The notes below the pieces were generated by a model, which was given only the letters and a program-made list of their open reading frames with translations, was not told the DNA's origin and searched no databases. From a virus: DNA of 64,000 nt. Within the stretch, counting starts at the first letter, position 1; every line of letters begins with the position of its first letter. Position numbers and translations under genes: made by a program. This document shows positions 1,841 through 64,000 of this stretch, piece by piece. The DNA lies in the IMG/VR virus record IMGVR_UViG_3300032893_000026. The stretch is one strand, 5' to 3'.

Positions 1841-1857
1841 GATTTAGACTCTAAATC
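1841..1857. promoter_or_regulatory. 17-bp palindromic operator-like site GATTTAGACTCTAAATC
   Basis: Perfect odd-length palindrome 43 bp upstream of the 1798 start; one of 15 copies in the genome. Confidence 0.8.
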
Positions 1858-2670: not shown

Positions 2671-2814
2671 TAATTTTTCCTCTGCTGAAGCTGGTTGACC
2701 TACGTTGAATTCGAGGGGCCCGGATCACTTACCCGGGCCCCAGGTCCTAGCAAGGTGTCCAGCACCGGCATCGAGTCCCGGGTCATCCCCGGAACCCCGC
2801 TAAGACGCCGGGCG

Positions 2815-3696: not shown

Positions 3697-3729
3697 CGTG
3701 ACTCCTTTGACTCAGGCCTCCTTAGGCCA

Positions 3730-4068: not shown

Positions 4069-4097
4069 TTCTTTCTCCTTTCCTTAGCCCTGTGGGG

Positions 4098-5143: not shown

Positions 5144-5145
5144 AT

Positions 5146-8001: not shown

Positions 8002-8561
8002 TATGAGCCGTACTGGCCGACATACGATGCCGCCCGTTTGTATCCCCTGTATTGGGAGCGCAGGGCCGCGCGTTTCTGGCGGTACTCCGATCCGGACGGC
8101 TCAAAGATGAACCAGAGCACGAGCCCTCCCGCGATCCATCCCCATAACGGGATCTGGAAGCTACCGATCCCGTAGTCGGTGGTGAGGGTGTTCTCGATGG
8201 ACGTGAGCGTCGAGGAGAAGTCTCCCAGCCCCTTCAGCCCTCCCGCACACCCGCACCCGGCGAGGCCAGCGCACCCGCACCCCAGGCCGCTAAGGCCCTG
8301 CCCGGATCCGGCCACCGGGGATATGACGGAGGTGGAGGCGAGAGCGTCGCGGATCGGGTTCTGCGGCACGGCGAACGCGGCGGGGAGCAGTTCCCCGATG
8401 TGGGGCACGTAGGCCGCGTGGCCGCGCATCAGTCCCTGGACGGAGGGCACAAGCGCCGTGCCCGGGTCGTTGGCGTCCGCAATGGGGTTCTGCGGCACAA
8501 CGAAGTTTCCCGGCAACAGGTCGCCGAATCCGGGGGCCGGGTGGAAGTTGAGATGAGGCAT
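8001..8561 (-). CDS. Membrane virion protein with two VPQNPI repeats and GLSGLG motifs
   Basis: GDLLPGNFVVPQNPI and GELLPAAFAVPQNPI; GLSGLGCGCAGLAGCG; TM LWGWIAGGLVLWFIF; basic tail. Confidence 0.65.
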   Translation of the reverse strand: MPHLNFHPAPGFGDLLPGNFVVPQNPIADANDPGTALVPSVQGLMRGHAAYVPHIGELLPAAFAVPQNPIRDALASTSVISPVAGSGQGLSGLGCGCAGLAGCGCAGGLKGLGDFSSTLTSIENTLTTDYGIGSFQIPLWGWIAGGLVLWFIFEPSGSEYRQKRAALRSQYRGYKRAASYVGQYGS

Positions 8562-8574
8562 CGTCTGATATCTC

Positions 8575-8865
8575 CTATTTCGCAACCATGACTACCGCGA
8601 CAATCCCGATAGCCAGGACTGCCAGAAAGATCGGGCCGTTATAGTCGCCCATGACCAGACTGCATGTGGCCGAGGGGCCGAGCACGGAAGAGAGCGTGGG
8701 ATAGTTGGTCGAGGCATAATCCGCGCACTGGGCCTTGTTGATGGCCGCCGTGGCCGAGTCCGCTTCCGACACCGGAGCGCAGGCCGTAATCAGGGATCCG
8801 GAGGCGGGGATCAGGGAACACCACCAGGGGACCGAGGCAGTGCCCGAAGCCGATACGTTCGCCAC
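8575..8865 (-). CDS. Small Cys-containing single-pass membrane protein
   Basis: Four Cys, C-terminal hydrophobic helix ending in K; tightly coupled in the operon. Confidence 0.6.
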   Translation of the reverse strand: MANVSASGTASVPWWCSLIPASGSLITACAPVSEADSATAAINKAQCADYASTNYPTLSSVLGPSATCSLVMGDYNGPIFLAVLAIGIVAVVMVAK

Positions 8866-22671: not shown

Positions 22672-23631
22672 TTACTCCTCCTCCCCCTCTTTCCCGTCGC
22701 CGGTATCGAGGTTCCAGGTGCTGGTGATGTGATCGGCAACATCCGGCCACTTGTCCGACGCCACCGTTAGGACTTTGCGGTCCTCCTCCTGGCGTTCCTT
22801 GCGCGTCTCAAACATCTCCATGTCGAGTGCGCCGATGATGTGTTCGCGCACCAGATCCTGGATGAACTCCGGCGTGAGTGCGTCCAACTCCCAGGACTCT
22901 TCGCCATGCTCCTCGATGTAAGCCGCCGCGCGGGAGTCGGTCACTTTCGCTGGATTGGGCGGCAGGCCGAGCGTATCAACCTGCTGCCGCGTAAGCGCAA
23001 TCCTCCGCACTTCGAGATAGGGAGCCAGCCACCGCATAAAAATAGCCATGCGGTCCCGGATATCTCGCGTCATGTCGAGGCCCGAGGGATCGTGGTCCCC
23101 GAGATGCAAAATGAGCGCCCGCTTGTGGTCGCGTCGTATCTTGTACAGGATGCGCTGGGCCGCTCCCCACATCTCCGTGGCACTGGTGTATCCCCTGCAA
23201 CTGAAGTGGGGCACGTCCCACTCATAGCACACACCTTCGAGCACTCCCACCAGTGCGTCCTTCTCGATCCACGCCTCGACATACAGCGGTTGGCCCCTCC
23301 ACAGATTGATGTGATAGGATTGCGCCGCACTCTCGATGATGGAGGCCGGATTCTCCCAGGCGCTCAACGTGCGCAGATTGCGCGTGCGGTCCTCCAGCGA
23401 CTCCCAGTCCACCAAGCCCGCGTACCGGGCATCGTTGATCAGCGCACCCAGATTGTCGTACTCCTTGGGCTTGTTCGCGATGATGTTCTGGCTGACCAGC
23501 TGGTAGTAGAGTTGCCTGAGGGTGAGCGTGAATCCCGCCGCAGTGTACTGCGCAATAATCGCGTTGGATTTATCGATCAGTTCCAGGCTGCGTCCCCGGA
23601 ACGCCTTCTCGATGTAGCAGATTTTCGGCAT
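22672..23631 (-). CDS. Topoisomerase VI subunit A/Spo11-like TOPRIM protein
   Basis: TLRQLYYQL (putative catalytic Tyr), WIEKDAL, RGYTS, GDHDPSG, ELDAL motifs. Confidence 0.8.
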   Translation of the reverse strand: MPKICYIEKAFRGRSLELIDKSNAIIAQYTAAGFTLTLRQLYYQLVSQNIIANKPKEYDNLGALINDARYAGLVDWESLEDRTRNLRTLSAWENPASIIESAAQSYHINLWRGQPLYVEAWIEKDALVGVLEGVCYEWDVPHFSCRGYTSATEMWGAAQRILYKIRRDHKRALILHLGDHDPSGLDMTRDIRDRMAIFMRWLAPYLEVRRIALTRQQVDTLGLPPNPAKVTDSRAAAYIEEHGEESWELDALTPEFIQDLVREHIIGALDMEMFETRKERQEEDRKVLTVASDKWPDVADHITSTWNLDTGDGKEGEEE

Positions 23632-30304: not shown

Positions 30305-30559
30305 CCTGGACCTTACCTATCGAATCTCATTGCACCGCCCCGGAACCACCGGTATGGAGATCGGAGGTTTCGCCAATAACTTGGTAGAAGCGGTGAATTT
30401 TTCCACCCCGAATTATGGCATACGCATCGTAGGCGAGTGTTGCACCAATGCTGTCGCCTTCGTCGGGCCGGTACAAAGCACCTTCGGTCATCTGCTCGTT
30501 TCCCCAAAAAATCAGCGGAATGCCGTGCAGCGTCACATCAGTTTTTATTTCTCTCCCCA

Positions 30560-30970
30560 TTACTTCATCTCTCCCCACTTCTCGGCCAACGGGTTCCTCC
30601 GCCACCCGGACGGATCCTCCCCGCCGGATATCCCCACCCGGCGCATCTTGCTCCGCATCTTGTGTTTGCGGAGATAGGCACGCCACAGGGTCTTAGGCTT
30701 GATCGGAGGCCTCCCCGGACGTGGCTTGGGGTTGATGATAGCCCCCAGTTTGATTACCCATGCCATATCACTCTCCCTTGGCCAGATGTGCCACTCTCCA
30801 TCAATTCCCTTGACGATAGCCCTGCGGCATACGAGGCATTCCATCCTCGACTGGTTGTAGATTGGGACGGAGACGTTGCAGCATACCACCAATCCCACCT
30901 GATCGGAGTAGTCCCCGTGTCCGGTAGTTACTAGTCCAAAGGTATACTCACATGCTGATCGGAAAGTCAT
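30560..30970 (-). CDS. Cassette-like hypothetical gene between 29-bp direct repeats
   Basis: Start MTFRSA with GGAG RBS; ends with the same AEKWGEMK* as the polymerase. Confidence 0.5.
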   Translation of the reverse strand: MTFRSACEYTFGLVTTGHGDYSDQVGLVVCCNVSVPIYNQSRMECLVCRRAIVKGIDGEWHIWPRESDMAWVIKLGAIINPKPRPGRPPIKPKTLWRAYLRKHKMRSKMRRVGISGGEDPSGWRRNPLAEKWGEMK

Positions 30971-31022
30971 ATCTTCTCCATACCCCTTATGTCTTACTTC
31001 ATCTCTCCCCACTTCTCGGCCA
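30560..31022. repeat. 29-bp exact direct repeat TTACTTCATCTCTCCCCACTTCTCGGCCA
   Basis: Copies at 30560-30588 and 30994-31022. Confidence 0.9.
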
Positions 31023-32403
31023 CGTCCGAGCTACTGTCTACAGGCACGTCGAGCCTGACTGCGTTCTGCATCACGTACCTCACCTCGTGTCCGAAGTCCT
31101 CCGCCAGATCGTCCTGCACCTCGAAGATCAACTCATCGTGTATCTGTAACAGGGGTAACACGAGATACTGCTGCGACTGGTAGTAAGTCACCAGATTGTA
31201 CACCTCCCCCATAACCAGCTTGATCACACCTTGGGCCGAGGCCTGGATCGGCATATTCCCCGCCTCCCTCAGCCCCTCGTTGACCTTGGCCGGGATGACT
31301 GACCTTACTTCGGGGATAAGTCTGGTCCTGCCAAACATATCCCACACCATCTCTTCCGCCTTGGCCCTCCGGTACTGCTCCTCCATCCAGTCCCGGATCC
31401 CGGGATAGGCGTCGAACCAAGCGTCAATGTACTTCTGGCACTCCTCCTCGCTCAGTTCCGGCCCGCCTTCGGCCATGATGTTGGCCCTCAGTCCCGGGGC
31501 GGTAAGCCCATACAACACACCGAATCCCAAGTTCTTGGCCGGGGCCCGCTGATTCTGCTTGAAGTTCTTCCACTCAGCCGCTTCCTCGGGAGTTAGCGTC
31601 TTGGACTCGTTCTTCTGCGCGAGATAGTTGATCCTCTCTATGGACAGCTTGAACAGGGCGCAGGCCGTGCGGTTGTGGATGTCGAGCCCCTGGATGAAGA
31701 TCTGCTGCATGGCCTGATCGCCACTCAGGTGGGCGGCTATCCGCATCTCGATCTGGCTGAGATCGCCTCCTACCAGCTTGGTGCCTCTTGAACCGACGAA
31801 GGCATTCCTGATCAGCTTGCCGTAGTCCCCCCTTATCGGGATGTTCTGCAAGTTGGGCAAGCCCTGCTTCCTGTCCCCCGAGCTAAGTCTCCCCGTGGTA
31901 GTGCGGGTGGCCTTGAATACCGTCCTCAGCCTTCCGTCCGCTCCCACCAGCAGGGGCAGGGGGCCGGTGTAAGTACTTCTCAACTTGGTGATCTCGCGGA
32001 AGTCCTGGATGCTCTTGATGACGGGGTGGAGGTTGACCATCGAGGCCAGCACTTCGTCTTCCGTGGTGTATCTCCCGCTCTTGAGTTTCCTCGGATCCCC
32101 CGGCGGCTTGAGTTCCATCCGTTCAAACAACAGATTGGCGACCTGATCCGGCGACCCCGGGCTGAATCCGGGGTATATGTCGTTCGTCCACAACCGGATC
32201 TCGTCGACTATCTCCGCCTCGCGGACGGAGAATTTAGAGTCTAAATCCAGGAGGTAGGGGACATCGATCCGGATGCCGTGCCGGTGCATCTGCGCGATCA
32301 TGGGCCACGCCATGCGGTCCAGCCTCGCGACGTTGGAGAGGGAGGGGCTGTCGACGAGCCGCACTCCCCCGAAGCATTTCTGGCCTACCCAATGAGGAAC
32401 CAT
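30994..32403 (-). CDS. polA: Family A DNA polymerase, polymerase domain only
   Basis: TGRLSS, PNLQNIP, motif A DLSQIEMR, motif B RAPAKNLGFGVLYG, motif C QIHDEL; own GGAGG RBS before ATG 32403; no exonuclease motifs. Confidence 0.92.
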   Translation of the reverse strand: MVPHWVGQKCFGGVRLVDSPSLSNVARLDRMAWPMIAQMHRHGIRIDVPYLLDLDSKFSVREAEIVDEIRLWTNDIYPGFSPGSPDQVANLLFERMELKPPGDPRKLKSGRYTTEDEVLASMVNLHPVIKSIQDFREITKLRSTYTGPLPLLVGADGRLRTVFKATRTTTGRLSSGDRKQGLPNLQNIPIRGDYGKLIRNAFVGSRGTKLVGGDLSQIEMRIAAHLSGDQAMQQIFIQGLDIHNRTACALFKLSIERINYLAQKNESKTLTPEEAAEWKNFKQNQRAPAKNLGFGVLYGLTAPGLRANIMAEGGPELSEEECQKYIDAWFDAYPGIRDWMEEQYRRAKAEEMVWDMFGRTRLIPEVRSVIPAKVNEGLREAGNMPIQASAQGVIKLVMGEVYNLVTYYQSQQYLVLPLLQIHDELIFEVQDDLAEDFGHEVRYVMQNAVRLDVPVDSSSDVAEKWGEMK

Positions 32404-32795
32404 CTGTACCTCCGGGGGACAGGTCTGCGCTCCTCGCGGCACAGGTAGCAGAGTATCCGCCCACCCGTGTAGCGGGGAGACACGTAAGTCCTGCGCCCGC
32501 ACTTGGAGCATTTGGAAGAATCGCGTGATCCGTCTTCCGGATTGTCTTCAGTCTTGTGACTCATGCATGTGCCACTTTCTCTTCTCCTCTTCGGAGATAG
32601 AACGGATCTGGTAGGAGTACTTGGCATTGGTCCTCCAATGGTGAAGGCAACGCAGACACACGAGGGCCGAATAGTCGGACGGGGTGGTGTGATAACCGTT
32701 GAATGCCGAGTGGTTGCACTTCCAATCCACCACGCGCCAGTACTTGCGGTCACATTCGCAATGGCCGTGTATTCCGGACCTGCTGATAGGTGTGC

Positions 32796-33197
32796 TCATT
32801 CGACCTCCCACCTGGATTTCTCTCGCGGGCTGAGGTCCCACACAATCCTTCTCCTTCCGCTACTCGCCACCCTCCTCTCGCCTGTGTCTACCACATACCC
32901 TTTCCGGCATAGCGGGGCCAACCGGGGGCTGGAGGTAGGGATGTCGAGGGCCAGCTTGATGGAAATCTCCTCCACGGTCAGGCCCGGCTTGCCCCCTTCC
33001 TTGTGGATGGGAAGCCCGGTGCGGTATAGGCGGATGCAATGAAAGACAATATCCTCCAACCCCCTGACATCGATGGACTCGGCGGCCTCAAGGGAGGTGT
33101 CGGGATCATCTTTCCTGCACCCCCCTATTTCATGTATCCCCGTCCCGCGTTTCTCGTGTTGCTCGTGTTGCTCGTGTTGCTTGTAATCGGGATTCAT
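32796..33197 (-). CDS. Winged-HTH-like phage protein
   Basis: DPDTSLEAA...GLT.EE...SPRL..L...G.V.D.G.RR...SGR...VW pattern. Confidence 0.6.
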   Translation of the reverse strand: MNPDYKQHEQHEQHEKRGTGIHEIGGCRKDDPDTSLEAAESIDVRGLEDIVFHCIRLYRTGLPIHKEGGKPGLTVEEISIKLALDIPTSSPRLAPLCRKGYVVDTGERRVASSGRRRIVWDLSPREKSRWEVE

Positions 33198-33655
33198 TCG
33201 ACCCTCCGCAGCACAATCATCGGAACCCCTCCTAACGACTGGGGATCGAATCCCGGATCGTGGGCGCACTGGGGGCTCAGATTGGCGTGCTGGTTGAGCG
33301 CCTGCCTCACCGCCGCCATGAGGTGGTCGAACATGGATGAGTGCAGATCGGAGGATAGGAGATAAAGCTCTCCCCCAGCCCCGCACTCCGCGCACGTCCA
33401 ACAGACCGCCTTGTCCATCCTCAAAGACCTCTCCAGCGTGTCCCACAACCTGCCGCACACCCTCATCCAGTACTCCGTCTCCAGGAGTTCTCCCTCAAAC
33501 GCCTCCGTGGACTTAGGCATGGACTTAGGCGTGGGCGTAGGCATGGTCCTGGATATAGTCCTAGACTCGTGTCCCGGGACTATGTCCATGGCTGGTTGGG
33601 GAGATTTAGAGTCTAAATTTCCGGGAGAGGATTTAGAGTCTAAATTGTCTGGCAT
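33194..33655 (-). CDS. Hypothetical protein starting with two palindrome-encoded LDSK repeats
   Basis: MPDNLDSKSSPGNLDSKS; CxxC motif. Confidence 0.45.
   Translation of the reverse strand: MPDNLDSKSSPGNLDSKSPQPAMDIVPGHESRTISRTMPTPTPKSMPKSTEAFEGELLETEYWMRVCGRLWDTLERSLRMDKAVCWTCAECGAGGELYLLSSDLHSSMFDHLMAAVRQALNQHANLSPQCAHDPGFDPQSLGGVPMIVLRRVE
33603..33646. promoter_or_regulatory. Tandem pair of palindromic sites
   Basis: GATTTAGAGTCTAAATT at 33603-33619 and 33630-33646 (27-bp period). Confidence 0.8.
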
Positions 33656-34104
33656 CAGTTCTCCTTGCTCCGCTGTTTGTCGGCTCTGCCCTTGCGGCGG
33701 GGGATGTAGTCGATGCTCTTCTTGTGGAACTTGTGCGATCCCCGCCGGTAGGCTCCGGCGCGGGCCACGGCCCGATGGTACTCGGGGTCGTTCCAGTAAG
33801 CCGATTGATGAACCTGCTTGGTGCAGTCCCGGCAGGTTGACCGGTGGCCGTGGAGGCGGGATCTGTCGACTGAGAAATTGGATATGGTCATCCAACGGGA
33901 GCAACGGGGACAGTATAAGAGGTCGAAGTCGAAGGCCTCCCGGATGTCCCGCTCTATGGCTTGGCGCAGGGTGCCCGACCTGCGTTCGCCGTCGATCCGC
34001 TTGGCCGAGCGCACGATGAGCAGGACCTTGGATATGATGGACTCCTGCTCTTTGATCCGTTTGTCCAGTTCCGCCATTTCCGGGTCTATGTCCAGTGACG
34101 CCAT
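33655..34104 (-). CDS. Zn-ribbon protein
   Basis: CPRC....ISNF..DRSRLHG..STCRDC pattern. Confidence 0.55.
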   Translation of the reverse strand: MASLDIDPEMAELDKRIKEQESIISKVLLIVRSAKRIDGERRSGTLRQAIERDIREAFDFDLLYCPRCSRWMTISNFSVDRSRLHGHRSTCRDCTKQVHQSAYWNDPEYHRAVARAGAYRRGSHKFHKKSIDYIPRRKGRADKQRSKEN

Positions 34105-34106
34105 GC

Positions 34107-34514
34107 TTATCTCTCCCTGTCCTTGTATTCCGGGCTTGCCGGTATGGGCCTGGGGTGGGATTCCTGTGAGCCTTCCTTCTCGCGGCGCATATGGCTCAGG
34201 AGGAGGTTGGGGGAGGGCTTCGAGTAGTAGGCTACGTGGAGGTAGGCCGTAGCCATGGAGCAGGTGAAGAGGATGCCGAAGTCCGACTTGGTGACTCCGT
34301 CCTCGATGGAGGAGAGAGACTCGGACCAGTAGGTCCCGTAGTTGCGGGCTGATATCCCGACGCCGAACAGTCCCAGGCGGTATATGACCTGGGAGGTGTC
34401 CTTGGCGCGGATGCAGAAGTGGACCCGGCCATGCATGTCCGCGTCCGGGTGGTTGGGCCAGTAGACGATGCCGGAGTAGACCCGGCGCTTGGCGGGCTGT
34501 TCAGGTATTGGCAT
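34107..34514 (-). CDS. Hypothetical protein
   Basis: Coupled in the gene run; plausible composition. Confidence 0.45.
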   Translation of the reverse strand: MPIPEQPAKRRVYSGIVYWPNHPDADMHGRVHFCIRAKDTSQVIYRLGLFGVGISARNYGTYWSESLSSIEDGVTKSDFGILFTCSMATAYLHVAYYSKPSPNLLLSHMRREKEGSQESHPRPIPASPEYKDRER

Positions 34515-34757
34515 CCACGCTTCTCCTTTCGAGGATGGACCTCATGATGCGCTGGGGTATGTCGGACACGGTGCCATCTTCCCGCAAATGGTGTTGGCTG
34601 CAAGGGAACTCGATCACCTCCCGGACACAAGCGGTGACTCCGGGATTGTTGAGGACATAGATGGCGGCCCATTCGAGAGCACCCTCCTGGGTTGCGTGGT
34701 AGGTGTGGACTTCCCGTTCAACGGGTTGGGGTTCGATGTAGCAGTGGTATTTGAGCA

Positions 34758-35135
34758 TCAGAGCTTGCCTCCTTTGGCGTAAGTCTCGAATTGGGAATGC
34801 ATGGCCTGCTCCGCGAGATAGTTGGCGACGTAAGTCAGTCCTTTCGCGCGGGCCACCTCCGCCAGAGCGTTCAACGTGGTCTTGGATGAGCGGGGAGTTC
34901 GCCCAACCGCGAGATTGGTGATTGTGTCGAGGCTCACTCCGGCGGCGCGGGCCAGCATGGACCGGCTGCCCATACGCTCCACCAGCCGCTTGACGGCGTC
35001 TTCGGTGTAGAGAACGGGCTTGTCGGAGAGGAGGCGGCGGCGCATGTGATCCAGGTATAGCTGTCGGATGTGCGCCTGCGTCTCCGGCGAAGTGGGACTG
35101 ATGATCGGATTGATGTCGCCGAAAGGATTGCTCAT
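34758..35135 (-). CDS. XRE-like HTH protein
   Basis: SRSMLARAAGVSLDTITNLAVGRT..S..TLNALA; GGAGG RBS. Confidence 0.65.
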   Translation of the reverse strand: MSNPFGDINPIISPTSPETQAHIRQLYLDHMRRRLLSDKPVLYTEDAVKRLVERMGSRSMLARAAGVSLDTITNLAVGRTPRSSKTTLNALAEVARAKGLTYVANYLAEQAMHSQFETYAKGGKL

Positions 35136-35449
35136 GCTTCCTCCCGGGATTGCACAGTCAGGTTCATCGCATGGATCATCTCCGCCTCCACGGCGGTCCT
35201 GATCACCGCCGCGAGTACGGGGGTGAGGCGCGTGGTGTAACTGCCTTTGTGTTTCCACGGTATGATGACGGCTTCCCGTTCCCAGACCTCGTGGTGACTG
35301 TAAAGCACCTTGACCGACTGGGGATCCGAGAAGTCGATGTCGCAGACAATGACGGACCGGCTGCCGAATCCGGTCAACTCATCCGGCTGGTCCACGTTGA
35401 AGGCCGGGCACCGCATCTTCAGGACCTGTTTATTAGGCGATAGCTCCAA

Positions 35450-35705
35450 CATCCTTTCCTGCCTTTCCAGGCTTTTACACCAGCTTCTTCCGGTGATCGA
35501 AGCCCTGTATTTATATATAGTCAAAACGGCTTTCGTTACGTAACGAATGCTGAAGAACAATACTGAAAATCAAAAACGTACTTTTCCACAGGCTAAGTGG
35601 GGGTACTCCACCCCATTTAATTTTTTCAGACTCGTATGTCAAAAACGGAGTAAAAAAGGGCAAAAACTCGCTATAAGTGGGGCTGGGTATGTAACCCATG
35701 AGTAA
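35450..35705. promoter_or_regulatory. AT-rich divergent promoter / candidate origin
   Basis: The most conspicuously AT-rich stretch by eye; perfect 16-bp palindrome TTCGTTACGTAACGAA (35532-35547); TTTTCCACA DnaA-box consensus (35582-35590); CAAAA(A)C x4. Confidence 0.6.
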
Positions 35706-35708
35706 AAC

Positions 35709-36122
35709 ATGGTGTATTATGTTGGACGAGAAAGGAAGCCAATCGTGCCCTTCAAAGTGTGGTTCAACCCCCGGAAGCGGAAGCCCCGCTACCTGATCCT
35801 CGACTGCATGTGCTGCGCCTACCACTGGACGAAAAGCCAGTTGAAACTGCCGAAGGTCTGCCCCCGGTGCCGGAACCGCCGATGGAACGACCCCACCTTC
35901 CGGTGGATCGATTATGTCTGCTCCCTGTGCGGCCACAAATGGCGCTCCAGCCACCCCAACCGGCCCCGCAAGTGCCCGAAGTGCTCCCGGTACATGTGGG
36001 ATGTCGATCAGGCCCTCGCCGTAACTCAAGGGCCCCTGTCCGAAATGGGTGTGCCGGATGAGGACCAAAGCCTCCCGGACGGCACCCCACCCTACGATCC
36101 AAATCCGGTCAAGCTGGATTAG
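35709..36122 (+). CDS. Double Zn-ribbon protein
   Basis: Two copies of C-x2-C-x-[YH]-x-W-x7-P-x2-CPxC-x4-W. Confidence 0.75.
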   Translation: MVYYVGRERKPIVPFKVWFNPRKRKPRYLILDCMCCAYHWTKSQLKLPKVCPRCRNRRWNDPTFRWIDYVCSLCGHKWRSSHPNRPRKCPKCSRYMWDVDQALAVTQGPLSEMGVPDEDQSLPDGTPPYDPNPVKLD

Positions 36123-36256
36123 TAGGCGCCTGGGCCTTCCCGGACTCCCAGGACTACTCCCAGGCTCACCCAGGCCTCTCCGGCCTCCTGGCGGGCCTGG
36201 GAGCGGCCTCAGAACCGATCCTGGCGAGGCTTTAGACCCTGAATCTCCGGACTGCC

Positions 36257-37750
36257 TCATGCCTGGGCCCTCCTCACCCTCCTGCCCCTCTCGGCCATCC
36301 GGGCCACCAAAGGGGACTTAATTCGTCTGGTTGCGTCCGCGTCCCGGCAGGCGTACCAGATGACTTTCTGCTCCGGCACCTGGGTGATCGAGGGCTTCTG
36401 CATAGTCCCGATACTGGCCTCTACAGGGGATCGATCCTCCGCCGGTATCGCCGCCCACCGCTTGATCGGATCGGAGTTCTTGGCCTCCACGTCGCGCAGG
36501 ATGGCGGCGGCCCTGTCCCACGGGTACTGCTTGCCCTCCTTGTCGCGTTCCATCTTGCTGCCGTCCTCCTCGAAGGGCTTGCCGCATTCGATGCAGTGCT
36601 GCACTCCCGGCTGGTCGAACAGAACCGGAGTCGAGGGATGCTTGCCGCCGTAGAATTTCCCTCCCGAGCAATGCCTCACCTTCAATTTCCACGGCTGGGC
36701 CTCGACGATCTCCGGCCACCTCAGCTTGCTGACCGCCTGGAGATACTCGATTGCCATCTCCCGCGCGTAGGGCAGCACCAGATCCTCATACTCCTGCATC
36801 TCCATGCCGAGATTTCTCCACGCCAGCACCTTCAGGCTCTGCGCCACATCCCCCAGCGTGTAGGCGTCCTCCATGGTGTCGTGCCACCTGTAGTCCACGA
36901 TCCCGGCCCCCTCCTCCAACATGGGAGCGTCGTACAACCAGTTGTGGAACACGAGCAGGGGCCTCTCGCGCCGGGCCCAGGAGTACCACTTCTGCATGAG
37001 CGGATTGTCCGCGCGGATCATATACCCGGTCCCCGGCGCCGGGCTCCAGGTCATGCACCACAGTTTCCCCCTGTCCGTCTCCGTATCCACTCCTACTTCC
37101 ATCCCGCGTACATCGAATCCCTCGCGGTAGACTACCCGCTCCAGCACATTCAACAGATCGTCTTCCGTCCTGAGGTGCCGGTAGTCGGGCTTGGGGAACC
37201 TGTCGTAGGGCAGCACCAGCTTGCCATGCCTCCACAACCACAACCGGCGGAAGTCCTCCTGGATCCGAATCATGAAGCTCGATTCCCTCAGCCCCGCCGC
37301 CGGGTGATAACACGGAAACACCGTGCCCTGCCACCCTCCGTAGTACTGCTCTTCCAGCGGGAACCCGTGCACCATCTCCAAGTCCACGTCCGTGTTGAAT
37401 ATCCGGAGGGCCACCGCTCCCAGCGTCACCACGTACTGCGGGTCCGTCTCGCAGAGTTCCCTCGGCAAATGGTGTCTTGCGCAGGCCTCCACGTCCTCCG
37501 GGTAGGGATCGTCGCCGTCCTTCGCCCCCTGCCTGCAATGGATGGCGTTGTCGATTCTCACGTCGCTCCTGGTGACCCCCGCCATGGGCATGTACTGGTA
37601 AGTCAACTCCCTGCCGCTCCTCCCCACGAACGGCACCCCCCTTCTGTCCTCCTCCTGCCCCGGCCCCTCTCCCAACCACAGGGAATTGCAAGGCTGCGGC
37701 CCGACTGCGGGGACCGGCCTCCGGCGTCTGCATCTCTCGCAACAGTCCAT
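36257..37750 (-). CDS. Family-4 uracil-DNA glycosylase fused to a PolA-type 3'-5' exonuclease
   Basis: CCERC, GEGPG..E...G.PFVG.SG, NAIHCR, YHPAAGLR; then ExoI DTET, ExoII HNWLYD, DTM, ExoIII YACRDAD. Confidence 0.9.
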   Translation of the reverse strand: MDCCERCRRRRPVPAVGPQPCNSLWLGEGPGQEEDRRGVPFVGRSGRELTYQYMPMAGVTRSDVRIDNAIHCRQGAKDGDDPYPEDVEACARHHLPRELCETDPQYVVTLGAVALRIFNTDVDLEMVHGFPLEEQYYGGWQGTVFPCYHPAAGLRESSFMIRIQEDFRRLWLWRHGKLVLPYDRFPKPDYRHLRTEDDLLNVLERVVYREGFDVRGMEVGVDTETDRGKLWCMTWSPAPGTGYMIRADNPLMQKWYSWARRERPLLVFHNWLYDAPMLEEGAGIVDYRWHDTMEDAYTLGDVAQSLKVLAWRNLGMEMQEYEDLVLPYAREMAIEYLQAVSKLRWPEIVEAQPWKLKVRHCSGGKFYGGKHPSTPVLFDQPGVQHCIECGKPFEEDGSKMERDKEGKQYPWDRAAAILRDVEAKNSDPIKRWAAIPAEDRSPVEASIGTMQKPSITQVPEQKVIWYACRDADATRRIKSPLVARMAERGRRVRRAQA

Positions 37751-37770
37751 ACCCCTGCCTCTTCTGCTTC

Positions 37771-38166
37771 CTACTGCCGCCCTTCCGTGCCCTGCTCCTG
37801 GACACGTACTACCGGCCCCTTGCACTTGGGGCACACGTACACGGCCTCCTCGCCGTCGTATTTCGGCGCCCTGATCCTGAGATAGGCCCCTAATGTCTTG
37901 AGCCTGCACTTCTCGTTCATGCACTGCCACACGGCCTTCACGTCAACCAACAGCCGCGCCCGCACGTTCCTGAACTTCTCCCTCGCCGCATTGAGTTGCT
38001 CCGGCGATATTCCCACCAGACTCTGGTAATCCTCCGGCTTCTGGCCCGGCAGCCGGAACTTGCCCTCCTTGATCGCCAACTCGTCCGCAGTCAGGTCCGA
38101 CAGGCTTAGGTTGCTTGTTTTTCCTCTTACCGGGACGCTGAACTTCTTTTTGGTGAAGTCGCTCAT
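37771..38166 (-). CDS. Small Zn-binding protein
   Basis: CMNEKC and CPKC motifs. Confidence 0.5.
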   Translation of the reverse strand: MSDFTKKKFSVPVRGKTSNLSLSDLTADELAIKEGKFRLPGQKPEDYQSLVGISPEQLNAAREKFRNVRARLLVDVKAVWQCMNEKCRLKTLGAYLRIRAPKYDGEEAVYVCPKCKGPVVRVQEQGTEGRQ

Positions 38167-38337
38167 GCAATTCCTTTCTCGCCTCTCTCATGGAGGTGAC
38201 ATACACTCTAACGTTGGGGTAATCGTAGGGGCTCGATGCCTCCCACGTGTTGTTGTAATCCCTCACTCCGTCATCGCGGAACCCTGCGCCGAGCAGATCG
38301 AACGTCTCCTCGCCGCCGAGTGGATCAACCATACTTT

Positions 38338-39150
38338 TCAGTCCGATTTAGACTCTAAATCATCACCGGCATCCCAGTCCGTCTGGGAGTCGAGGTCCTT
38401 CTCTCCGTGGATCCAGTTCAGGATTTTCCTCGCCGTCTTGGGGCCCACGCCGGGAAGAGACTGCCAGTCTTCGGAGGTGGACATGGCGATCATGTCGAAG
38501 GGAGATCGCCACTTCATCTGGCAGGCGAGAGACTTCTCGACGCCGATGCCGGGCAGTTCCCGCGCGACGGATCGAACCGGGTTCTCGCGGGATTGCAGGG
38601 GGATCACGTTCCATGGGTCGAAGTACATCGTCCTCAGGGATTTGTGATCTTTCCACTCGCGTTGGTGGTAGGAGTGGAGGGAAATGATGTTGCGGACGGT
38701 GTTGGCCTCGCCGGTAGTGCGGCGCACACGGACAGGAGTCCACTCAAGACTACACAAGAAATGATCGAAGTGCTCCCACATGAAACGCTGGCGCCCGAGC
38801 GTGACCTCGCGCCACCAGATGCGCTTGTGGTCCTTGGCGTCCTCGCACGCCTCCTCCAGCATCCCCGTCCAGGGATTGGCCCGGCACAGGCCCTCCACGA
38901 TCAGGTAACTGCGGTCGTAGAGATCCAGCATGCGGGGTATCTGCACGTCCACCAACCGGCCCGACTGCATGGACTGGAGGAGGTCGCGGATCGTCTTGCG
39001 CTCGACCCCCAGGCGCGAGGGGCCTTTGGGGGTGTTGCCGTCGAAGGCGAAGTCCCCGGCCTCCAACTGGCCCAGGGTGTACTTGGCCCCGATCTGCTCG
39101 AAGAGCGGGGCCAATTCCTTCGATCCCGTGCGGCTGTCAATCACGATCAT
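38338..39150 (-). CDS. ERCC4/XPF-family nuclease with HhH motifs
   Basis: IDSR, GDF, VERKT..DL..S...GRL, LIVEG; PGIG and LPGVGPKTA HhH; ends in a palindrome copy (38345-38361). Confidence 0.85.
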   Translation of the reverse strand: MIVIDSRTGSKELAPLFEQIGAKYTLGQLEAGDFAFDGNTPKGPSRLGVERKTIRDLLQSMQSGRLVDVQIPRMLDLYDRSYLIVEGLCRANPWTGMLEEACEDAKDHKRIWWREVTLGRQRFMWEHFDHFLCSLEWTPVRVRRTTGEANTVRNIISLHSYHQREWKDHKSLRTMYFDPWNVIPLQSRENPVRSVARELPGIGVEKSLACQMKWRSPFDMIAMSTSEDWQSLPGVGPKTARKILNWIHGEKDLDSQTDWDAGDDLESKSD

Positions 39151-47191: not shown

Positions 47192-47923
47192 TCAGGCCCG
47201 GGTAACATCCTTGGATGGTACTGGTACTTCAATACCTACTTTGGTGCCCCAGGCCGGAGCCCCGGGAGACGAGTCCATCTCCCTTACCAGCCGCTTGGTG
47301 TCGTATACCGTGGTGCGGGAGCAGTTGAAGAGCTTCATCAGGCCTTTGACGTCATAGAGCTTCATGGCCTCGCGGAACCGGTTGAGGTCATCGATGGCGC
47401 GGGGCTTGGGCTTCCAGGTCCCGGCGGCCTTCGAGCGGGCAAGCCCGGCCTTGACCCGCGCCGAGATCCTCTCCCGCTCCTGTTTGGCGATGACAGCCAG
47501 GATCGCGACTATCGCATCCTTGAATACGCCGCAGGTGTCGAGATACTGCTCCGTGTATGAACAGTAGGAGACGCCGTGCGTGGAGAGTTGGTTGAGGTAG
47601 TTGAGGGTCTGGAGGGCGCCTTCGCGGGTGAGCCGGTCGAGGGCCCAGAACACGAGCACGTCGAACTTGCCCTCCTTGGCGTCCTGCATCATGCGGCGGA
47701 ACATGGGACGGTCCGATTTGGCGCCGGATCCGTACTCGGCGTATTCGCGGGTATGGATCCAGTCCTTGTGCATGTCCATCAGGGTCTGGAGTTGGGCCCG
47801 CTGATTTTCCACGTCCTGGCGGGATTCGAGGGACCTTTCTCCGGTCACCCGGCTTCTCACGTTGCGCTCCGGGTCCGAGCACCGCAGGTAGGTGACCACG
47901 CGCAGGGCTTCGAGGGATGCCAT
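47192..47923 (-). CDS. Small serine recombinase (resolvase/invertase)
   Basis: YLRCS catalytic Ser, Q..QL, GSG...DRP, LDRLTR, ERERIS.R.KAGL; short C-terminal HTH, no large recombinase domain. Confidence 0.92.
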   Translation of the reverse strand: MASLEALRVVTYLRCSDPERNVRSRVTGERSLESRQDVENQRAQLQTLMDMHKDWIHTREYAEYGSGAKSDRPMFRRMMQDAKEGKFDVLVFWALDRLTREGALQTLNYLNQLSTHGVSYCSYTEQYLDTCGVFKDAIVAILAVIAKQERERISARVKAGLARSKAAGTWKPKPRAIDDLNRFREAMKLYDVKGLMKLFNCSRTTVYDTKRLVREMDSSPGAPAWGTKVGIEVPVPSKDVTRA

Positions 47924-57693: not shown

Positions 57694-58241
57694 TTGGCTT
57701 TCTCCTCGACTAACAGGCACGGCTCCGTGAACATGAGCAGAAGCTGGCAGTAGATCGTGTTGGCCGTGCGATTCGAGATGTACACGTTGACCAGGGCCGG
57801 GTCCAGTATCAACCGTGGCTGAGTGAGCAGAACCGGGCTCATCCGGCTCCCGTAATCCGCCGTGCCCTGGCTGTTGACCTGCGCCGCGCTTCCGATGCAG
57901 TAGTCCTGGAATAGGGGCACGCCCGTGCAACTGTCGACCACCTGCACGAGCAGGTCCGAGGACTGTGTCGCGACGGGCGTCTGGTCGGGACTGGTGGCCG
58001 AAATGGTGTGGAAGTTGTACCCCCACAAGTACGCGCCGTCCGCCGCCGCTATCTGGTAGAAGAACGTGTCGAAGGGGTTGACCGGCTCCCCCTGGTCATC
58101 CGGCACCACGTACCACCTCGCCCGGTGATTGACCGCTCTCCGCAGGATGTCCATCTGGCCGAGGGCCTGGGGGAAGTATCTGCACGGGAGCAGTTGGAGC
58201 GCCGCGTTGTAGGTGAAGGCGTCGACAACCTGTTTGAGCAT
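57675..58241 (-). CDS. Jelly-roll-like minor capsid protein (188 aa); 5' part duplicated at 1-400
   Basis: LLVQVVDSCTG..LFQ and LLTQPRLILDPALVNVYISN echo FSIRFSDSQG and FPEIIIPAGG.I.IDI of the 149-aa protein. Confidence 0.5.
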   Translation of the reverse strand: MLKQVVDAFTYNAALQLLPCRYFPQALGQMDILRRAVNHRARWYVVPDDQGEPVNPFDTFFYQIAAADGAYLWGYNFHTISATSPDQTPVATQSSDLLVQVVDSCTGVPLFQDYCIGSAAQVNSQGTADYGSRMSPVLLTQPRLILDPALVNVYISNRTANTIYCQLLLMFTEPCLLVEEKAKCPDLC

Positions 58242-61200
58242 ATGTCTCTCCTCTCCTTGTCTCGACGCCTTACCTCGACGCCTTGCACGGGATTCGCCAG
58301 ACCCCGTCGAGCATCACGTTGTAGGTGATCAGCGTGGAAGAAGCGTTGGGCACCAACGAGGTGATGTCCATGATAATGGCTCCCCCCGCCGGGTAGATCA
58401 TACTCGGCACTGGGAAAATGGCCTGATACGGCGGCCCCTGCGCGGCGCTCACCCTCCCCGCGTTCAGGTATCCCTGCGGGAGCGGGAGATTGGAGAACTG
58501 CCTCTGGTTGGGGTCGTAGAGCGTGATCGAGAAGTCCTGGGTGACGAGCGCCCCGGTGCCGGGCGTGGTGATGTCCGCGATCCTGATGCTCATCAACTCG
58601 AAGTCGTACTGCTCCATGATCTGGGAGATACGGGTCGGGGTCTGACCAGCCGAGTAATCGACACTGTTCTGGAAGTTGAGCGAGTAGGAATACTTGACCT
58701 CGCGGTAGTCGTAAGGCGTGCGGTGGAAGATCGGGCTCGTCCCCGCCGCGAATCTCTTGACTCCCATGAATGCGATGTAGGCGTAGTACACGCCCGAGTT
58801 ATTGGCCCTGCTCACGGTGAACAAATCAAAACGGATGGAGTTATTCACGTCGTAGAGCTTCTCCGGTACGACAGGCCAGCAATTGGGCATGACCATGCCG
58901 GTGGTCGGACTGCCGTTCGCGTACGCGCCCGAGGCGTTCTTCAGATTGAACCTTCCCCCGTTGGCCGCCGTGTCCACCACATTCGGCACTCCGAGGACGC
59001 GCCTCAGGACGAACTGCGAATCTCCTTGCAGGGGCAGTGCTATGTCGTTGTAGTTCGCGCCGTCCGCGAGGGAGGTCGCGTCATAGACGTAGGCGAAGGG
59101 ATAATCGACGAACCCCGCCGGGGTTACATAAGGCTCTTCCGGGAACTTCATCTCCAGTCTCCTTTCCTCTTCTTTGCCTTGAGGTCAGGCTACTTGGAGA
59201 TATCCGCCAGCCGGTACCGCTTCACCCCGCGAAAGGCGATCTGAATCGTGTTCGACTGCCCGCTGATATCCTGAATGTCGATTCCGATCCTGCCGCCCGC
59301 CGGGATGATGATCTCCGGGAATACGGGCCAGGGACTCGCCGCGTCTGCCACGATGTTGGCCGAGGCCACAAACCCGTTGCTCAAATAGTATCCCTGCGAG
59401 TCGCTGAAGCGGATCGAAAACGCGCCGGTAGCCAGTCCTATCACAATGGCCCTCCAGGCGAAGTCCGCGTCGTTGGTAGTCGCGACGGTCTGGTCGCTGA
59501 GCTTCTGGTTGGCGGTGAGGCTCACGTCATACGGGTACGTGAAGTCGACATCCGTGTACCCTTCCGGGCTGGCGTCCGTCACCCCGTTGAACACGGGAGC
59601 GGACTGGGGATTGAAGATCGGGGAATTGAGAGCGCCCACTTTTGTATCTCCTTCAGTGCCCGGGATCCAATAACCCCAGGCGATTTAGACTCTAAATCCT
59701 GCCGCCGCCGGGTGCGCTTCCGGTGCCTCTCCCTATCTGCCACTGGCCCTGCTTCCCGCCCCCCGGTCCTGAAGGAGCAACCAGGGGGCGGGAGAGAAGC
59801 CATCAGGTACGGGAGCGGGACCGGCCCGGCCTTCGCGGCACTTCGGATGGCGTATCGCGCGATGCGTGCCGTCGGCCTGCCGACCAGCCTGCCGATCCAC
59901 CCGGCTCTCTACTGCACGCCGCGTGCGTACAGCCCGTCGAGCAGGCACACCAGGGTGAGCCCGGTGCCTCCCGAGGCGGAGGCGGTGAGCGTGGCGGAGG
60001 TGCCGTTCAACTGGCCGTAGAACGTCATCTGGTTCTCGATGACGATAGGGATCGCGAGTTTGTGCATGGACTCGCGCCCCGGCTTGCCGTTGCCGAGGAT
60101 CGTGGTGGACGAGGTGGTGATCGCGGCGTAGATTCCGCCGCCCGCATTGTAGTACCAGAGCGGGCCACGCTGATACGGCTTCTGTCCGAGATAGAACTCG
60201 AAGCAGAACCCGTTCAGGATGGTGATCAGATCCGTCAGGTAGATGTCCTCCGAATAACGGATGCGGAAGCCGAAGATCGAGAAGGCCTCCGGGGCGGCCA
60301 GTTTCTGCGACTGGGTGAGGTTCGTCAGGGCCAGGGTCTTGCTGCTGGCCGGGCCCACGTTGGTGAACAGGGCCGTGGTCAACACCGTCACGGACGAGCC
60401 CGCGTTGAGGGCCACCGTGTCGTAGAGCGGGGTGTGCTGCACGTCCATCCGATTGTTCACGTACACTTCGGAGTTGAACGCATCGACGATCATCTGTTGC
60501 TGCGGAGTCATTAATTTTTCCTCTGCTGAAGCTGGTTGACCTACGTTGAATTCGAGGGGCCCGGATCACTTACCCGGGCCCCAGGTCCTAGCAAGGTGTC
60601 CAGCACCGGCATCGAGTCCCGGGTCATCCCCGGAACCCCGCTAAGACGCCGGGCGCTAGAAAGCGGTGCCGAAGGCCCGCGCGAGTCCGTTCATGGTGAC
60701 ACGGGCGTTGGTCGGCGTGGCAGGAGCCGGAGCCGGGATGGCGGCGCGGATCGGGTTCTGCGGAACCACGAACTGGCCGGGCATCAGGTCGCCGAGCCCA
60801 ATCGGCACTCCCCCGACGGTGAAGCCGGGCAGGAAGGCGTTCAGGGCCACGGAGGCCACCTGCATGAGGCCGCCGAACATGACGCCGTTGCCGAACTCGG
60901 GATCGAGCTTTCCGGCGCCCCAACCGGACGCCACCGCAGCCACGGCGGAGATGATCACGCGTCCAAACGTGGTGGAGCCGAACGATCCGGTGATCGAGGT
61001 GGGGATGAGGGTGGGGATGAACTTCGTCGCCGCCACGCCCACCAGACCACCGCCGATCAGCTTGAGGCTGTCCTTGGAGGTGAACGGGTGTCCGAGCAAG
61101 CCCGGATTCCGGCGGCGGTGACTCACGCGCCTCCGGGGGTTCTTCGCGTAATGACGGCGGCGGTTCCTCCGCTTGGGTGCCACGAACACCACGCGGGTGG

Positions 61201-64000
61201 CGTTGCGTCGGCGGCGGCGGGCGTAGCGGCGCGGGTTGCGGGCAACCCGGCGGCGGCGCACGTTCTTCACTTTGCGTCTGCGTCTTACCATGGTGCTTCT
61301 CCTTATGGGATTGAGGGACCCGAGTGTCACCACCAGGGCCGGGTTGGTTCTGCGGGTTCTCCTTCGGCGTGTTTTGCGCGACACCTGGACCTTTCTCCGC
61401 TTGGGATTCGTCTTGCGACGTCGGAGGGCGGCCTTCTGCCGGGCAGTTCCGAAGAACTTGATTTGTTTTGCGGTCATCCGCCTCCGCTTCCGGTGGCGGG
61501 AATTAGCCAGCCGCTTGACTTTGGTTGTGACTGCCATCGTGACTCCTTTGACTCAGGCCTCCTTAGGCCACTAGGCCGCCAGGGAACAGGGCCGTTGCAG
61601 GACCACGATATAAGTCCCGGCGGAACCGGCCACGTTGCCTTTGCTGAAAGTGACGATATTGGAGTTCGTCAGTACAGCCGCGATGGTGCATACGGCTGTT
61701 CCCACCACGTTGGGGGTGATCGTGACGAGCGGGAAGTTGAAGGCCAACTGCGCCGTCGAGAGCCCCCAGTTGTGGGTCATCACAAAGCTGGTGTCGGTGT
61801 CCGCTCCGATTGCCACAGTAGCCGTGATGGTATTGCACTTCTTTGCCTGTGCGGCAGTGGGAGGCGTAACACCGGCCACCGGGTAAGCGTAAGTGACTGT
61901 GACTGCCATTTCTTTCTCCTTTCCTTAGCCCTGTGGGGCTACTGTCTTGCTTCGACTACATCCGTTGCATTCTGGTCCTCCTCCCCCTTGCAAGGGAGGT
62001 GGGCCACGGATCTCATGCCGGGCGCGACGGCCCGGACCTTAAGGTGCACGATCTCCAACCGGGGATCGACCTTGATTACCGCGCCCCCGTCCTTGGCGCG
62101 GTAACAGAAACTGATGTCCTCTCCCAAGAAGCCCATCTCTGTCCTCCCGTCCACAATCGGGCGGAAGGGCCTGTCGCCAGCCATGCGTCCGATCCGGCTG
62201 CGCATGAGCACGGCGGGGAACCCGGTCCAGTCCACGGAGATCGGGATCTGTCCCAGGAGAGCCGTCACCCGGATCGGCTTGCACCGGATGCCGTCTTCGG
62301 AGGAGCGGTATCCACAACTGGGAACGGCGTGGATATCGTAGCCATCCGGCTGGCAATAGCACCATGCCGACACCATGTCGAGCATGGGATCGTCGAACAT
62401 GTCGTTGAGCAGGATCTTGAACTGGTCGAAGGTGAGCAGGTTGTCATCGTCCATCCACAGGATGTAGTCCGCAACGACTCCGCCTTGCCCCTTCATGACC
62501 CCGTTCCAGATCGTGGACCTCGTCGCGTACACGTTGGACGAGTACCCGAGATAGAACTGCACGTTATAGGCGTAATCCGGGTCCATGATCAGTTGGGCCA
62601 GGAAAGTTGTCCAGTTACTCACCCACACATTCGGGAATTGCTCTCCCGGGATGCAGATGGCGAGATTCAATGGCTTCCGCTCGTTCTCACTCATACGTCT
62701 TCCGCTCCTTCGCTTTGACTTGCTCCGCTCGTTCCGCTCGATCTCCCCTTGCCGTAGTACTTCCGGTAGAGCCACCACCCCGCCCCCACGGCAAGCAGGA
62801 GGAGGATGACGGATTGCGACTGCGATTGCGATTGCGACTGGTTGGACTGGATCGGGATGCAGTCCCAGAACCCCGTGCTGGCGTCGAGCACCGCGTAGTA
62901 GCCCGCGCCGCACCCCGGGTCGACACCGATGCTCTCGGCGGTGACGCCACCGGCAGGCTGAGATACCAAGTCAGAGAGGTCCATATCTAGTTCTCGATCC
63001 CCGGACTCACGCCGACGAGCGGCTGCTTGATGAAGTACTGCCCGCCCGTGATGTAGAGCTTCTGGTTCTGCGGCTCGTATTCGAGGTAAGGCCTCTCGCC
63101 CGTGTCCTCGCCCAAGTCGTGCTGATAGATGATCTCCTCGAAGTCATCGAACTTCTTCTTCGTCTTGTAAGCCAGATTCCAGTACCGCTTGTTGTTGGTG
63201 GGCTTCGCGCCGGGCTCCGGCTCACTGAATACGCCGAGCACCATTCGGTCCTTCAGCCATTTCTTCTCGTCCATCTTGAGCGTCGCCAGATCCACCGACT
63301 GGTCGCCGCCCTCGATGTACAGTTGCCTGCCGTCCTCGCTCGAAGCCAGGAACGGAGGGTTCTTCTCGAAGTCGATTCGGACGCGGATCCTGGTTGGGGT
63401 GTCGACGTAGATCTCCGTCAGGGTGCCGAGAGCGGCCAGATGCTCATGCTCGTGGTACTCCTCCTCGATCACCACCTCTTCCGTCGACGGAGCGCCGTGG
63501 AAGGACTCGTACAGATCGGCGGCGGCACCGGCAGGATTACGTTTGGCTCTGGGCTTGTAGTCCGAATAGAGGATGTAGTTCTGGCGCCCGGCCCGGTCTT
63601 CCTTGTATACACAGGTGGCCGCGTACCCCTTGGCCCGAATGCTTTGGACAAGCTGGTCCGCATACTGATCGTCTTCCGGGGTAACAGCAGGGAGCTTGAG
63701 ACTGTATCTGTAACTCCTCCCCCTGAAGGAGAAGGATTTGGGATTCTTCTTCCAGTCCCACTTACTCCGCTTGTGGCCCCTGGCATACTTCTTTTCCATG
63801 GTGGCGCACACCGCTCCCGGATCATATTCCTTCCCTACTCCCGCCTCGCACCGCTCAAACCACCCTGGCCCCGACCCTGGCCGCGCACCCGAATGGTGCC
63901 CCGGATTTGCTTCCCCAAACATGCCCTGATACGGATTGCCCTTCGACTTACCGAATCCGTGGAGCTTGGCCCTGGCCGCCGCGTAGGCCTCCTCGCGCGT
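57842..64000. repeat. Wrap-around duplicate of 1-6159 (circular genome overlap)
   Basis: Start, end and all ORF translations match at an offset of 57841. Confidence 0.95.

Follow-up and report, generated by a model that had tools for sequence, protein, structure and literature searches.

The 64,000-nt stretch of viral DNA analyzed in the current study (IMG/VR record IMGVR_UViG_3300032893_000026, hereafter the window) carries a family A DNA polymerase (PolA) that is encoded by two genes lying several kilobases apart. PolA enzymes are normally single chains in which the stability of the polymerase domain is believed to depend on the exonuclease domain. The window represents a 57,841-bp genome, from an uncultured virus of a wetland, that is circular or terminally redundant, and it wraps round, positions 1-6159 being identical to 57842-64000. 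The GC content of the genome is 62%, and nearly all genes are carried by the minus strand.

The first of the two genes (36257..37750, minus strand) encodes a protein of 497 aa (database protein P0243), which comprises a uracil-DNA glycosylase (UDG) of family 4 and a 3'-5' exonuclease (exo). The second (30994..32403, minus strand) encodes 469 aa (database protein P0003) corresponding to the thumb, palm and fingers of PolA (pol). The Pfam domain UDG matched the open reading frame (ORF) 36257-37930 of the minus strand (E 6.8e-19, residues 82-218) and DNA_pol_A matched ORF 30994-32511 of the same strand (E 8.4e-93), while the match of DNA_pol_A_exo1 to the former was weak (19.4 bits, under the cut-off of 23.6). 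The closest solved structures to the UDG domain were the family-4 UDGs 1vk2, 1ui0 and 4zbx, the first two at E of about 1e-19. When placed on PHROG_17, a long profile of phage polymerases, the UDG-exo ORF covered positions 519-830 and the pol ORF the adjoining positions 843-1234.

The ATG codons at 37750 and 32403, the starts also used in the earlier note, are likely to be the true starts of the exo and pol genes, respectively. The latter is preceded by a GGAGG ribosome-binding site, and the database gene calls of P0243 and P0003 agree with both positions. Given these starts, the genes are separated by a spacer of 3,853 bp (32404..36256), in which ten minus-strand ORFs and one plus-strand ORF were recognized from codon-position GC and ORF layout. 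The exo protein stops about 20 residues past motif ExoIII; with this stop at 36257 and a separate start at 32403, the UDG, exo and pol domains are not on one polypeptide. An earlier note on this DNA, made from the sequence alone, had described a UDG-exonuclease gene ending just after ExoIII, a separate polymerase gene with its own ribosome-binding site, beginning at the point from which PolA would ordinarily go on, and about ten genes between them, with an AT-rich region, a Zn-ribbon gene and small helix-turn-helix (HTH) and Zn genes. The ORF 36257-37750, the Pfam and PHROG_17 matches, the GGAGG before ATG 32403 and the eleven spacer ORFs bear out this description.

Catalytic residues and new termini

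The motifs of all three activities are present in the two products. In the UDG part these are motif A (GE[AG]PG), motif B (HP[AS]) and four Cys residues for a 4Fe-4S cluster, as expected for family 4. Among 47 homologues, G27, N68 (the recognition Asn) and C90 were invariant, and E28, P30, C72, H149, P150 and A151 were conserved in at least 90%. The consensus of these 47 sequences also contains an N-terminal CxxC, the Cys residues forming the Fe-S site. To judge from these residues, the UDG of this virus is apparently active. The exonuclease part has the carboxylates of ExoI (DxE), ExoII (NxxxD) and ExoIII (YxxxD); D222, T223 and E224 (ExoI), D274 (ExoII), and Y466 and D470 (ExoIII) were invariant in 47 homologues, and N270 was conserved in at least 90%. 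The second product carries family A polymerase motif A (D..SQIE), motif B (R...K...FG..YG) and motif C (HDE). In 104 homologues of this half D214, Q217 and E219 (motif A), R286, K290 and F294 (motif B), and H422 and D423 (motif C) were invariant, and at least 90% conservation was found for Y298 and G299 of motif B.

Alignment with nine fused relatives placed the break exactly at the linker between exonuclease and polymerase. Compared with these relatives, the exo protein stops right after the helix that follows ExoIII and adds about eight mostly basic residues, and the pol protein starts about 21 residues ahead of the first helix of the polymerase domain. Residue 29 of pol aligns by sequence with residue 207 of the Klenow chain, near the exonuclease/polymerase boundary. 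Fused enzymes have nothing that corresponds to the N-terminal peptide of about 21 aa, yet it is conserved among the split polymerases (G13, D18 and P20 in at least 90%).

Distribution and origin of the split

Contigs from other samples that carry the closest polymerase homologues were examined as relatives, and five such loci were inspected, four of them (L001-L004) with their DNA and the fifth from gene calls only. In all five the order on one strand was UDG-exo gene, spacer, pol gene. The spacer of L001 (polymerase identity 66%) is 5,856 bp long and has 13 called genes, that of L002 (53%) 2,448 bp with seven genes, and that of L004 (49%) 1,684 bp with three genes, and in the fifth contig (41%) six genes were called within 1,532 bp. 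L003 has a spacer of 5,009 bp with 12 genes; its polymerase is interrupted by about 310 aa, probably an intein, and is 39-54% identical over its two parts.

The 120 best near-length homologues of the pol half (40-66% identity) were without exception polymerase-only proteins with a common start point, and many of them come from contigs 50-69 kb long. When the exo half was used as query in an exhaustive search, 510 clusters (50% identity) were obtained at E<=1e-30. Among the best 150 of these 510 representatives, 118 were stand-alone proteins (<=600 aa), 30 were fused (>=800 aa) and two were intermediate (646 and 689 aa); in 90 stand-alone homologues with a recognizable ExoIII, the chain ended a median of 25 residues past the motif. 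The nearest single-chain UDG-exo-pol proteins were 36-39% identical to the pol half and 29-31% identical to the exo half.

A phylogeny against contiguous homologues had been proposed in the earlier note. In a maximum-likelihood tree of polymerase domains, 57 split sequences grouped in a single clade (100/100) placed within the fused UDG-PolAs, cellular Pol I falling on the opposite side, which indicates a single fission of a UDG-PolA ancestor. On the evidence of this tree, the split polymerases are a derived offshoot of the UDG-PolA group. It was also found that the two halves diverge together, the pairwise identities of one correlating with those of the other (r=0.94; 11 genomes, 55 pairs that are not independent of each other).

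A scan of the genomes of about 185,000 prokaryote species (GTDB, polymerase alignment) gave no clade member and only cellular Pol I, at up to 38% identity; hence no prophage copy was found. The deposited phages of INPHARED likewise contained no clade member, the best polymerase matches being below 35% identity. Matches to UDG-exo in that set were fused polymerases or UDG-only proteins, and one of these records, MW202489, has a fused gene of 780 aa. A scan of IMG/VR with polymerase peptide words gave no match.

Seven long proteins of the pol half (P0071, P0089, P0091, P0103, P0113, P0116 and P0122) contain insertions of about 310 aa at four positions (near residues 180, 216, 290 and 388); one has intein/LAGLIDADG Pfam domains and one has HNH. 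Two homologues of the exo half, P0250 and P0291, have LAGLIDADG insertions. Both the polymerase-half and the exo-half genes are hot spots for mobile elements.

Predicted association of the two products

A structure model of the two products together, also proposed in the earlier note, was computed from own alignments of each half. The predicted complex reached an ipSAE of 0.84 in three runs, compared with 0.56 for the best control; this mark is reached by 58 of 80 solved complexes and by 2 of 110 mismatched pairs. The three runs shared at least 95% of contacts, and the partner pLDDT was 87. In the predicted interface UDG residues 44-52 and 154-164 lie against pol residues 359-380, exo residues 271-304 lie against pol residues 19-41 and 165-169, and the C-terminal tail of exo (482-495) meets the start of the pol chain. 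The predicted model supports binding of the two halves.

These results make it probable, in our assessment, that a replicative family A polymerase is made here from two genes, which arose by one ancient fission of a UDG-exo-pol gene, and that the products re-associate. There are published precedents for the re-association of split polymerases, namely a model for the S-SBP1 PolA (PMC10201439), the co-purifying 43A and 43B of T4-like phages (PMC2988022) and the PolB complex of PhiKZ (PMC13648687). In the proposed mechanism, an ancestral UDG-PolA gene would have fissioned once, anciently and exactly at the exonuclease/polymerase linker, leaving a first product with the family-4 UDG (apparently active) and the proofreading exonuclease, and a second with the polymerase domain. 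The halves most likely re-associate non-covalently through native interdomain surfaces, probably helped by the gained basic tail of exo and by the N-terminal peptide of pol, and once assembled they would give an enzyme with three sites, like the known single-chain UDG-PolAs. The intervening DNA would since have become a variable slot, with a partly conserved module and changing accessory and mobile genes. The earlier note had proposed a two-subunit replicase. The natural two-gene PolA, its conservation and single origin and its retained catalytic residues stand as observed and the complex model passes its controls, while the assembly of the subunits is deduced.

An alternative, considered improbable, is that no stable enzyme is formed; pol would then replicate without intrinsic proofreading, and UDG-exo would be a separate repair or anti-uracil nuclease or would act on host DNA. 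Although the genes are 1.5-5.9 kb apart, the halves may be transcribed separately in some members of the clade, and stand-alone UDG-exo has a complete catalytic residue set of its own, the two halves were found together and in the same order in every genome inspected, they co-diverge, and their new termini are conserved and fall within the predicted interface. In addition, it is reported that PolA polymerase domains are stable only with the help of the exonuclease domain (PMC10201439, discussion).

Several points weigh against an assembled two-gene enzyme and its wide occurrence. The score of the complex model may reflect likeness to single-chain PolA, because such structures are abundant, and the best-scoring control was an unrelated pair. 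The pairwise values behind the co-divergence are, as mentioned, not independent. The gene-by-gene view covers five relatives, and elsewhere in the clade the split is read from protein lengths and N-terminal alignment. Assembly of a heterodimer is proposed from sequence and a predicted model, for this virus and its relatives. Finally, four aspects appear new (that the split affects UDG-PolAs, how old and how large the clade is, that several genes, some of them conserved, make up the spacer, and that the new termini are conserved), but the literature search behind this left out most subscription journals and may have missed earlier descriptions.

Rejoining and artefact as alternatives

It is very unlikely that the halves are rejoined by intron splicing, by trans-splicing split inteins or by recoding to yield a single-chain mature enzyme. 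Inteins do invade the polymerase gene of relatives (four sites carry the insertions of about 310 aa, and P0089 and P0132 have Pfam intein domains) and LAGLIDADG insertions occur in two exo-half homologues, but no Pfam intein domain was found on either half in the window, and a search of 30500-38500 gave no Rfam family at E<=1, so that no intron model matches this region; the gene pair is thus unlike the SPO1 and Twort polymerase genes, which are interrupted by group I or group II introns. The extra residues amount to only about 8 (exo) and 21 (pol), with no conserved His-Asn plus Cys/Ser/Thr junction (HN[CST]) as in split inteins. Moreover, the spacer contains protein genes that recur in relatives, including one on the opposite strand, and the spacer varies in length from 1.5 to 5.9 kb. 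The lack of intron and intein hallmarks, which had been remarked on earlier, was thus also seen in the Rfam and Pfam searches.

An assembly chimera, which would have spoken against the split according to the earlier note, was looked for in Logan contigs. Contigs from the probable source run bridge exo and spacer (33546-38300) and spacer and pol (30500-33461) at even depth and without joints, and the layout is shared by five independent assemblies. A run from a second study contained fragments of the exo, spacer and pol parts, mostly at >=99% identity, and the two runs besides the likely source gave low-depth DNA fragments only, which cover parts of the stretch; no RNA run was among those containing it. 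The least credible reading, namely an assembly chimera or a polymerase gene lately broken by a cassette and heading for loss, is already contradicted by the conservation data: mobile- or accessory-looking genes do occur in the spacers (weakly EndoVII/HNH-like in the window; DUF559, Mom and methyltransferase in relatives), but the same layout is found in independent assemblies from other samples, the junctions are bridged at even depth, the catalytic residues have stayed invariant in a clade whose members are down to 40% identity, and the tree points to one old origin.

In all, the intron, split-intein, chimera and pseudogene readings were rejected on the Rfam and Pfam nulls, the bridged junctions, the five relatives and the conserved catalytic residues. 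The assembly graph of the source sample also contains a two-allele bubble at 33432-33575 (9 differences in 144 nt, depths 4.5 and 9.2), indicating that two virus strains coexist in the sample.

Comparison with known split and single-chain polymerases

A fission of PolA between exo and pol was described in 2023 for S-SBP1-like T7-like cyanophages (Czernecki et al., NAR; PMC10201439), where it is stated to be "observed for the first time"; the earlier note had missed this report. According to that paper, the two S-SBP1 genes overlap after a +1 frameshift, the event is called recent, and the two products as modelled with AlphaFold can be superposed on the intact enzyme. Split PolAs have also been mentioned for metagenome-assembled genomes (MAGs) of uncultured cyanophages (bioRxiv 10.1101/325100), and in the OM43 phages MEP401/402 one small ORF lies between the halves (PMC10580990). 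As a kind, the split exo/pol PolA is therefore already known from the cyanophage, MAG and OM43 reports. The case in the window resembles these in the division at the exo/pol boundary into two genes, whose products are predicted to re-form the normal fold.

The differences are several. In the S-SBP1, MAG and OM43 cases the genes are adjacent, overlapping or one small ORF apart, whereas here they are separated by 1.5-5.9 kb and 3-13 genes. The S-SBP1-type enzymes have no UDG domain and belong to the T7-like subfamily; in contrast, the present ones are UDG-PolAs, and their nearest fused relatives are UDG-PolAs as well. The new termini of S-SBP1 are described as solvent-exposed, unlike the conserved termini found here, which are predicted to lie in the interface. 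The S-SBP1 split is also described as recent, whereas here it is old, the clade having diverged to 40% identity, with 118 of the best 150 exo clusters stand-alone. An S-SBP1-like class characterized by adjacent or overlapping genes and T7-like affiliation does not accommodate the present pair, given the distance between the genes, the UDG domain and a tree position nested among UDG-PolAs.

Single-chain UDG-PolAs (SPO1, SP-15/YerA41/phiLo and N4-like; PMC10201439, PMC13697223) have the same domain order of UDG, exo and pol. The UDG catalytic motifs are retained here as in the SP15-like "active UDG" group, and the predicted model puts the UDG against the exo and pol parts, as described for the single-chain enzymes. 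These are one polypeptide, however, and the closest fused relatives are 29-39% identical to the proteins studied here.

Split replicative polymerases are also known in family B. The 43A and 43B products of the T4-like phages 25 and 44RR co-purify, and phage 25 has a gene for a homing endonuclease between the two (PMC2988022); the split PolB of PhiKZ (DNAP-N and DNAP-C) forms a complex (PMC13648687). The present case is like these in that a viral replicative polymerase is encoded in two cistrons, and the products of the T4-like and PhiKZ genes form an active complex. They belong to another polymerase family and are split at other positions, and in the T4-like phages there is at most one intervening gene.

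The clade described here suggests that a two-subunit PolA can persist through deep divergence (more than 100 clusters defined at 50% identity; the lowest identities are about 40%), in a different subfamily whose UDG is apparently active, and even though kilobases lie between the genes. In this natural system one can ask how the modules for proofreading, uracil scanning and synthesis dock when they are not covalently joined, whether there is regulation of subunit stoichiometry or timing, and what short peptides suffice to hold the PolA domains together, the last being useful for the engineering of split polymerases. It is also a warning for annotation, as a metagenomic PolA gene that looks "polymerase-only" may be partnered by an exo gene far away.

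Genes of the spacer and the AT-rich region

The only plus-strand gene of the spacer (35709..36122, GC3 0.80) is convergent with the exo gene and encodes a Zn-ribbon protein of 137 aa with several CxxC motifs, for which Zn-ribbon Pfam matches were sub-threshold only. Homologues on the reverse strand, i.e. with the same relative orientation, directly follow the exo gene in L001 (4173-4688) and L003 (4967-5449). In L001 an automatic call at 4134-5027 (297 aa, plus strand) is probably a shadow ORF of this reverse-strand gene, and an AT-rich non-coding stretch comes after the Zn-ribbon homologue.

In the window an AT-rich divergent intergenic region (35561..35708) is a candidate promoter or control region, and it could equally be a replication origin. 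Positions from about 35400 to 35700 form the lowest-GC stretch of the whole 57,841-bp genome (0.40, compared with a mean of 0.62), and an AT-rich trough just after the exo gene was present in all five loci with DNA (the window and L001-L004). No convincing shared sequence was found between the AT-rich regions of the window and L001, which contain only short two-copy repeats, and cumulative GC skew gave no origin signal at the spacer.

The remaining ORFs are on the minus strand. The first gene after the AT-rich region (35132..35560, likely start near 35452) encodes a conserved protein of 107-142 aa with homologues in L001, L002 and L003 and no Pfam or PHROG match. It is followed by a gene for a Cro/CI-type HTH protein of 125 aa (34758..35135), which has weak matches to HTH_31, HTH_3 and PHROG repressors and homologues in L001 and L002. 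In L002 the counterparts of these two are fused in one 209-aa protein (8229-8858), and because of this fusion it is suggested that the two products work together as one regulator.

An ORF of 85 aa (34501..34758, GC3 0.70) has no Pfam or PHROG match. The next gene (34107..34514) encodes a 135-aa spacer protein with the motif HP-x-AD-x-HG, which could be a replication accessory factor. Homologues are present in the spacers of L001 (6303-6632), L002 (9412-9801) and L003 (8292-8603), and the motif is invariant in the four proteins, which are about 105-135 aa long. The AF2 model of the window protein (pLDDT 71, alpha/beta) had no fold match in the PDB at E<=0.001.

Further along the spacer are genes for a Cys-rich protein of 149 aa that is weakly endonuclease VII/HNH-like (33655..34104; PHROG E about 5e-5; homologue in L001), a 153-aa ORF of uncertain coding status (33194..33654, GC3 about 0.65), a winged-helix-like protein of 133 aa (32796..33197; phrog_1123, E 1.2e-9) with a homologue downstream of pol in L001, and a Cys/His-rich protein of 83 aa (32548..32799), which is 63% identical to its homologue in the spacer of L001. 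Immediately upstream of pol is a Zn-ribbon ORF of 59 aa (32385..32564), which overlaps the pol start by 19 nt and is not conserved among the relatives. None of the spacer ORFs reached a Pfam threshold.

Besides the HTH gene and those at 34107-34514 and 35132-35560, two further spacer genes recur in L001. To judge from the recurrence of several of its genes in the spacers of relatives, the spacer is not a random recent insertion. The content of these spacers varies, and DUF559, Mom and methyltransferase are present among the relatives. In L002 (11654-12653) and L003 (7750-9832), genes for dCMP deaminase and NUDIX lie beside pol, or genes for Mom and an N6/N4 methyltransferase lie in the spacer. 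Together with the apparently active UDG, these genes of the relatives hint at nucleotide-pool control or DNA modification in this group of viruses.

Regulation of the two genes

A scan of 30800-38400 for sigma-70 promoters gave no sites where 2.6 were expected, and terminator-like sites in this region were no commoner than in shuffles; transcription units could therefore not be defined from these signals. L001 has counterparts of both the Zn-ribbon and the HTH gene, L003 of the former and L002 of the latter, and this partly conserved spacer layout after the exo gene gives some support to an arrangement in which one transcription unit finishes with the exo gene and the following one includes pol, at least in the subclade of the window. 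In two relatives with short gaps the gene calls are all co-directional. The claim in the earlier note that the halves are separately regulated is no more than plausible: the Zn-ribbon gene, the AT-rich region and the HTH gene after exo agree with it, whereas no promoter was identified and the short gaps are co-directional.

A more far-reaching proposal, which is held only tentatively and is on balance unlikely, is that in a large undescribed family of probably non-tailed viruses of about 57-68 kb the two-gene replicase is both ancestral and obligatory. The module of convergent Zn-ribbon gene, AT-rich region, and small protein with HTH would then be a switch or origin that splits the subunits into different transcription units, and the composition of the holoenzyme would change during infection.

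Other genes and repeats

The earlier note had taken the virus to be of a type in which PolA is unusual. No hallmark gene of tailed phages, such as a terminase, portal or HK97-type capsid family, was found among 20 proteins searched against PHROGs (ten also against Pfam). The replication module includes a DinG-like helicase, a Sak4-like AAA_24 protein, an ERCC4-HhH nuclease, a DUF932 protein, a topoisomerase-like protein, ParB and a serine recombinase. The topoisomerase-like gene (22672-23631, minus strand) matched a PHROG annotated as "DNA topoisomerase" (E 4.6e-107) and had no Pfam match, and the serine recombinase gene (47192-47923, minus strand) has a Resolvase domain (E 2.4e-26).

A 15-bp palindrome, ATTTAGA-N-TCTAAAT, occurs in 16 copies in the window, compared with 0.05 expected by chance. 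One copy (32232..32246) lies inside the pol coding sequence, and two (33604-33618 and 33631-33645) stand in tandem at the start of ORF 33194-33654, within its first codons. All three are coding and are read in the same frame, as Leu-Asp-Ser-Lys; the other copies are found at 13 further sites.

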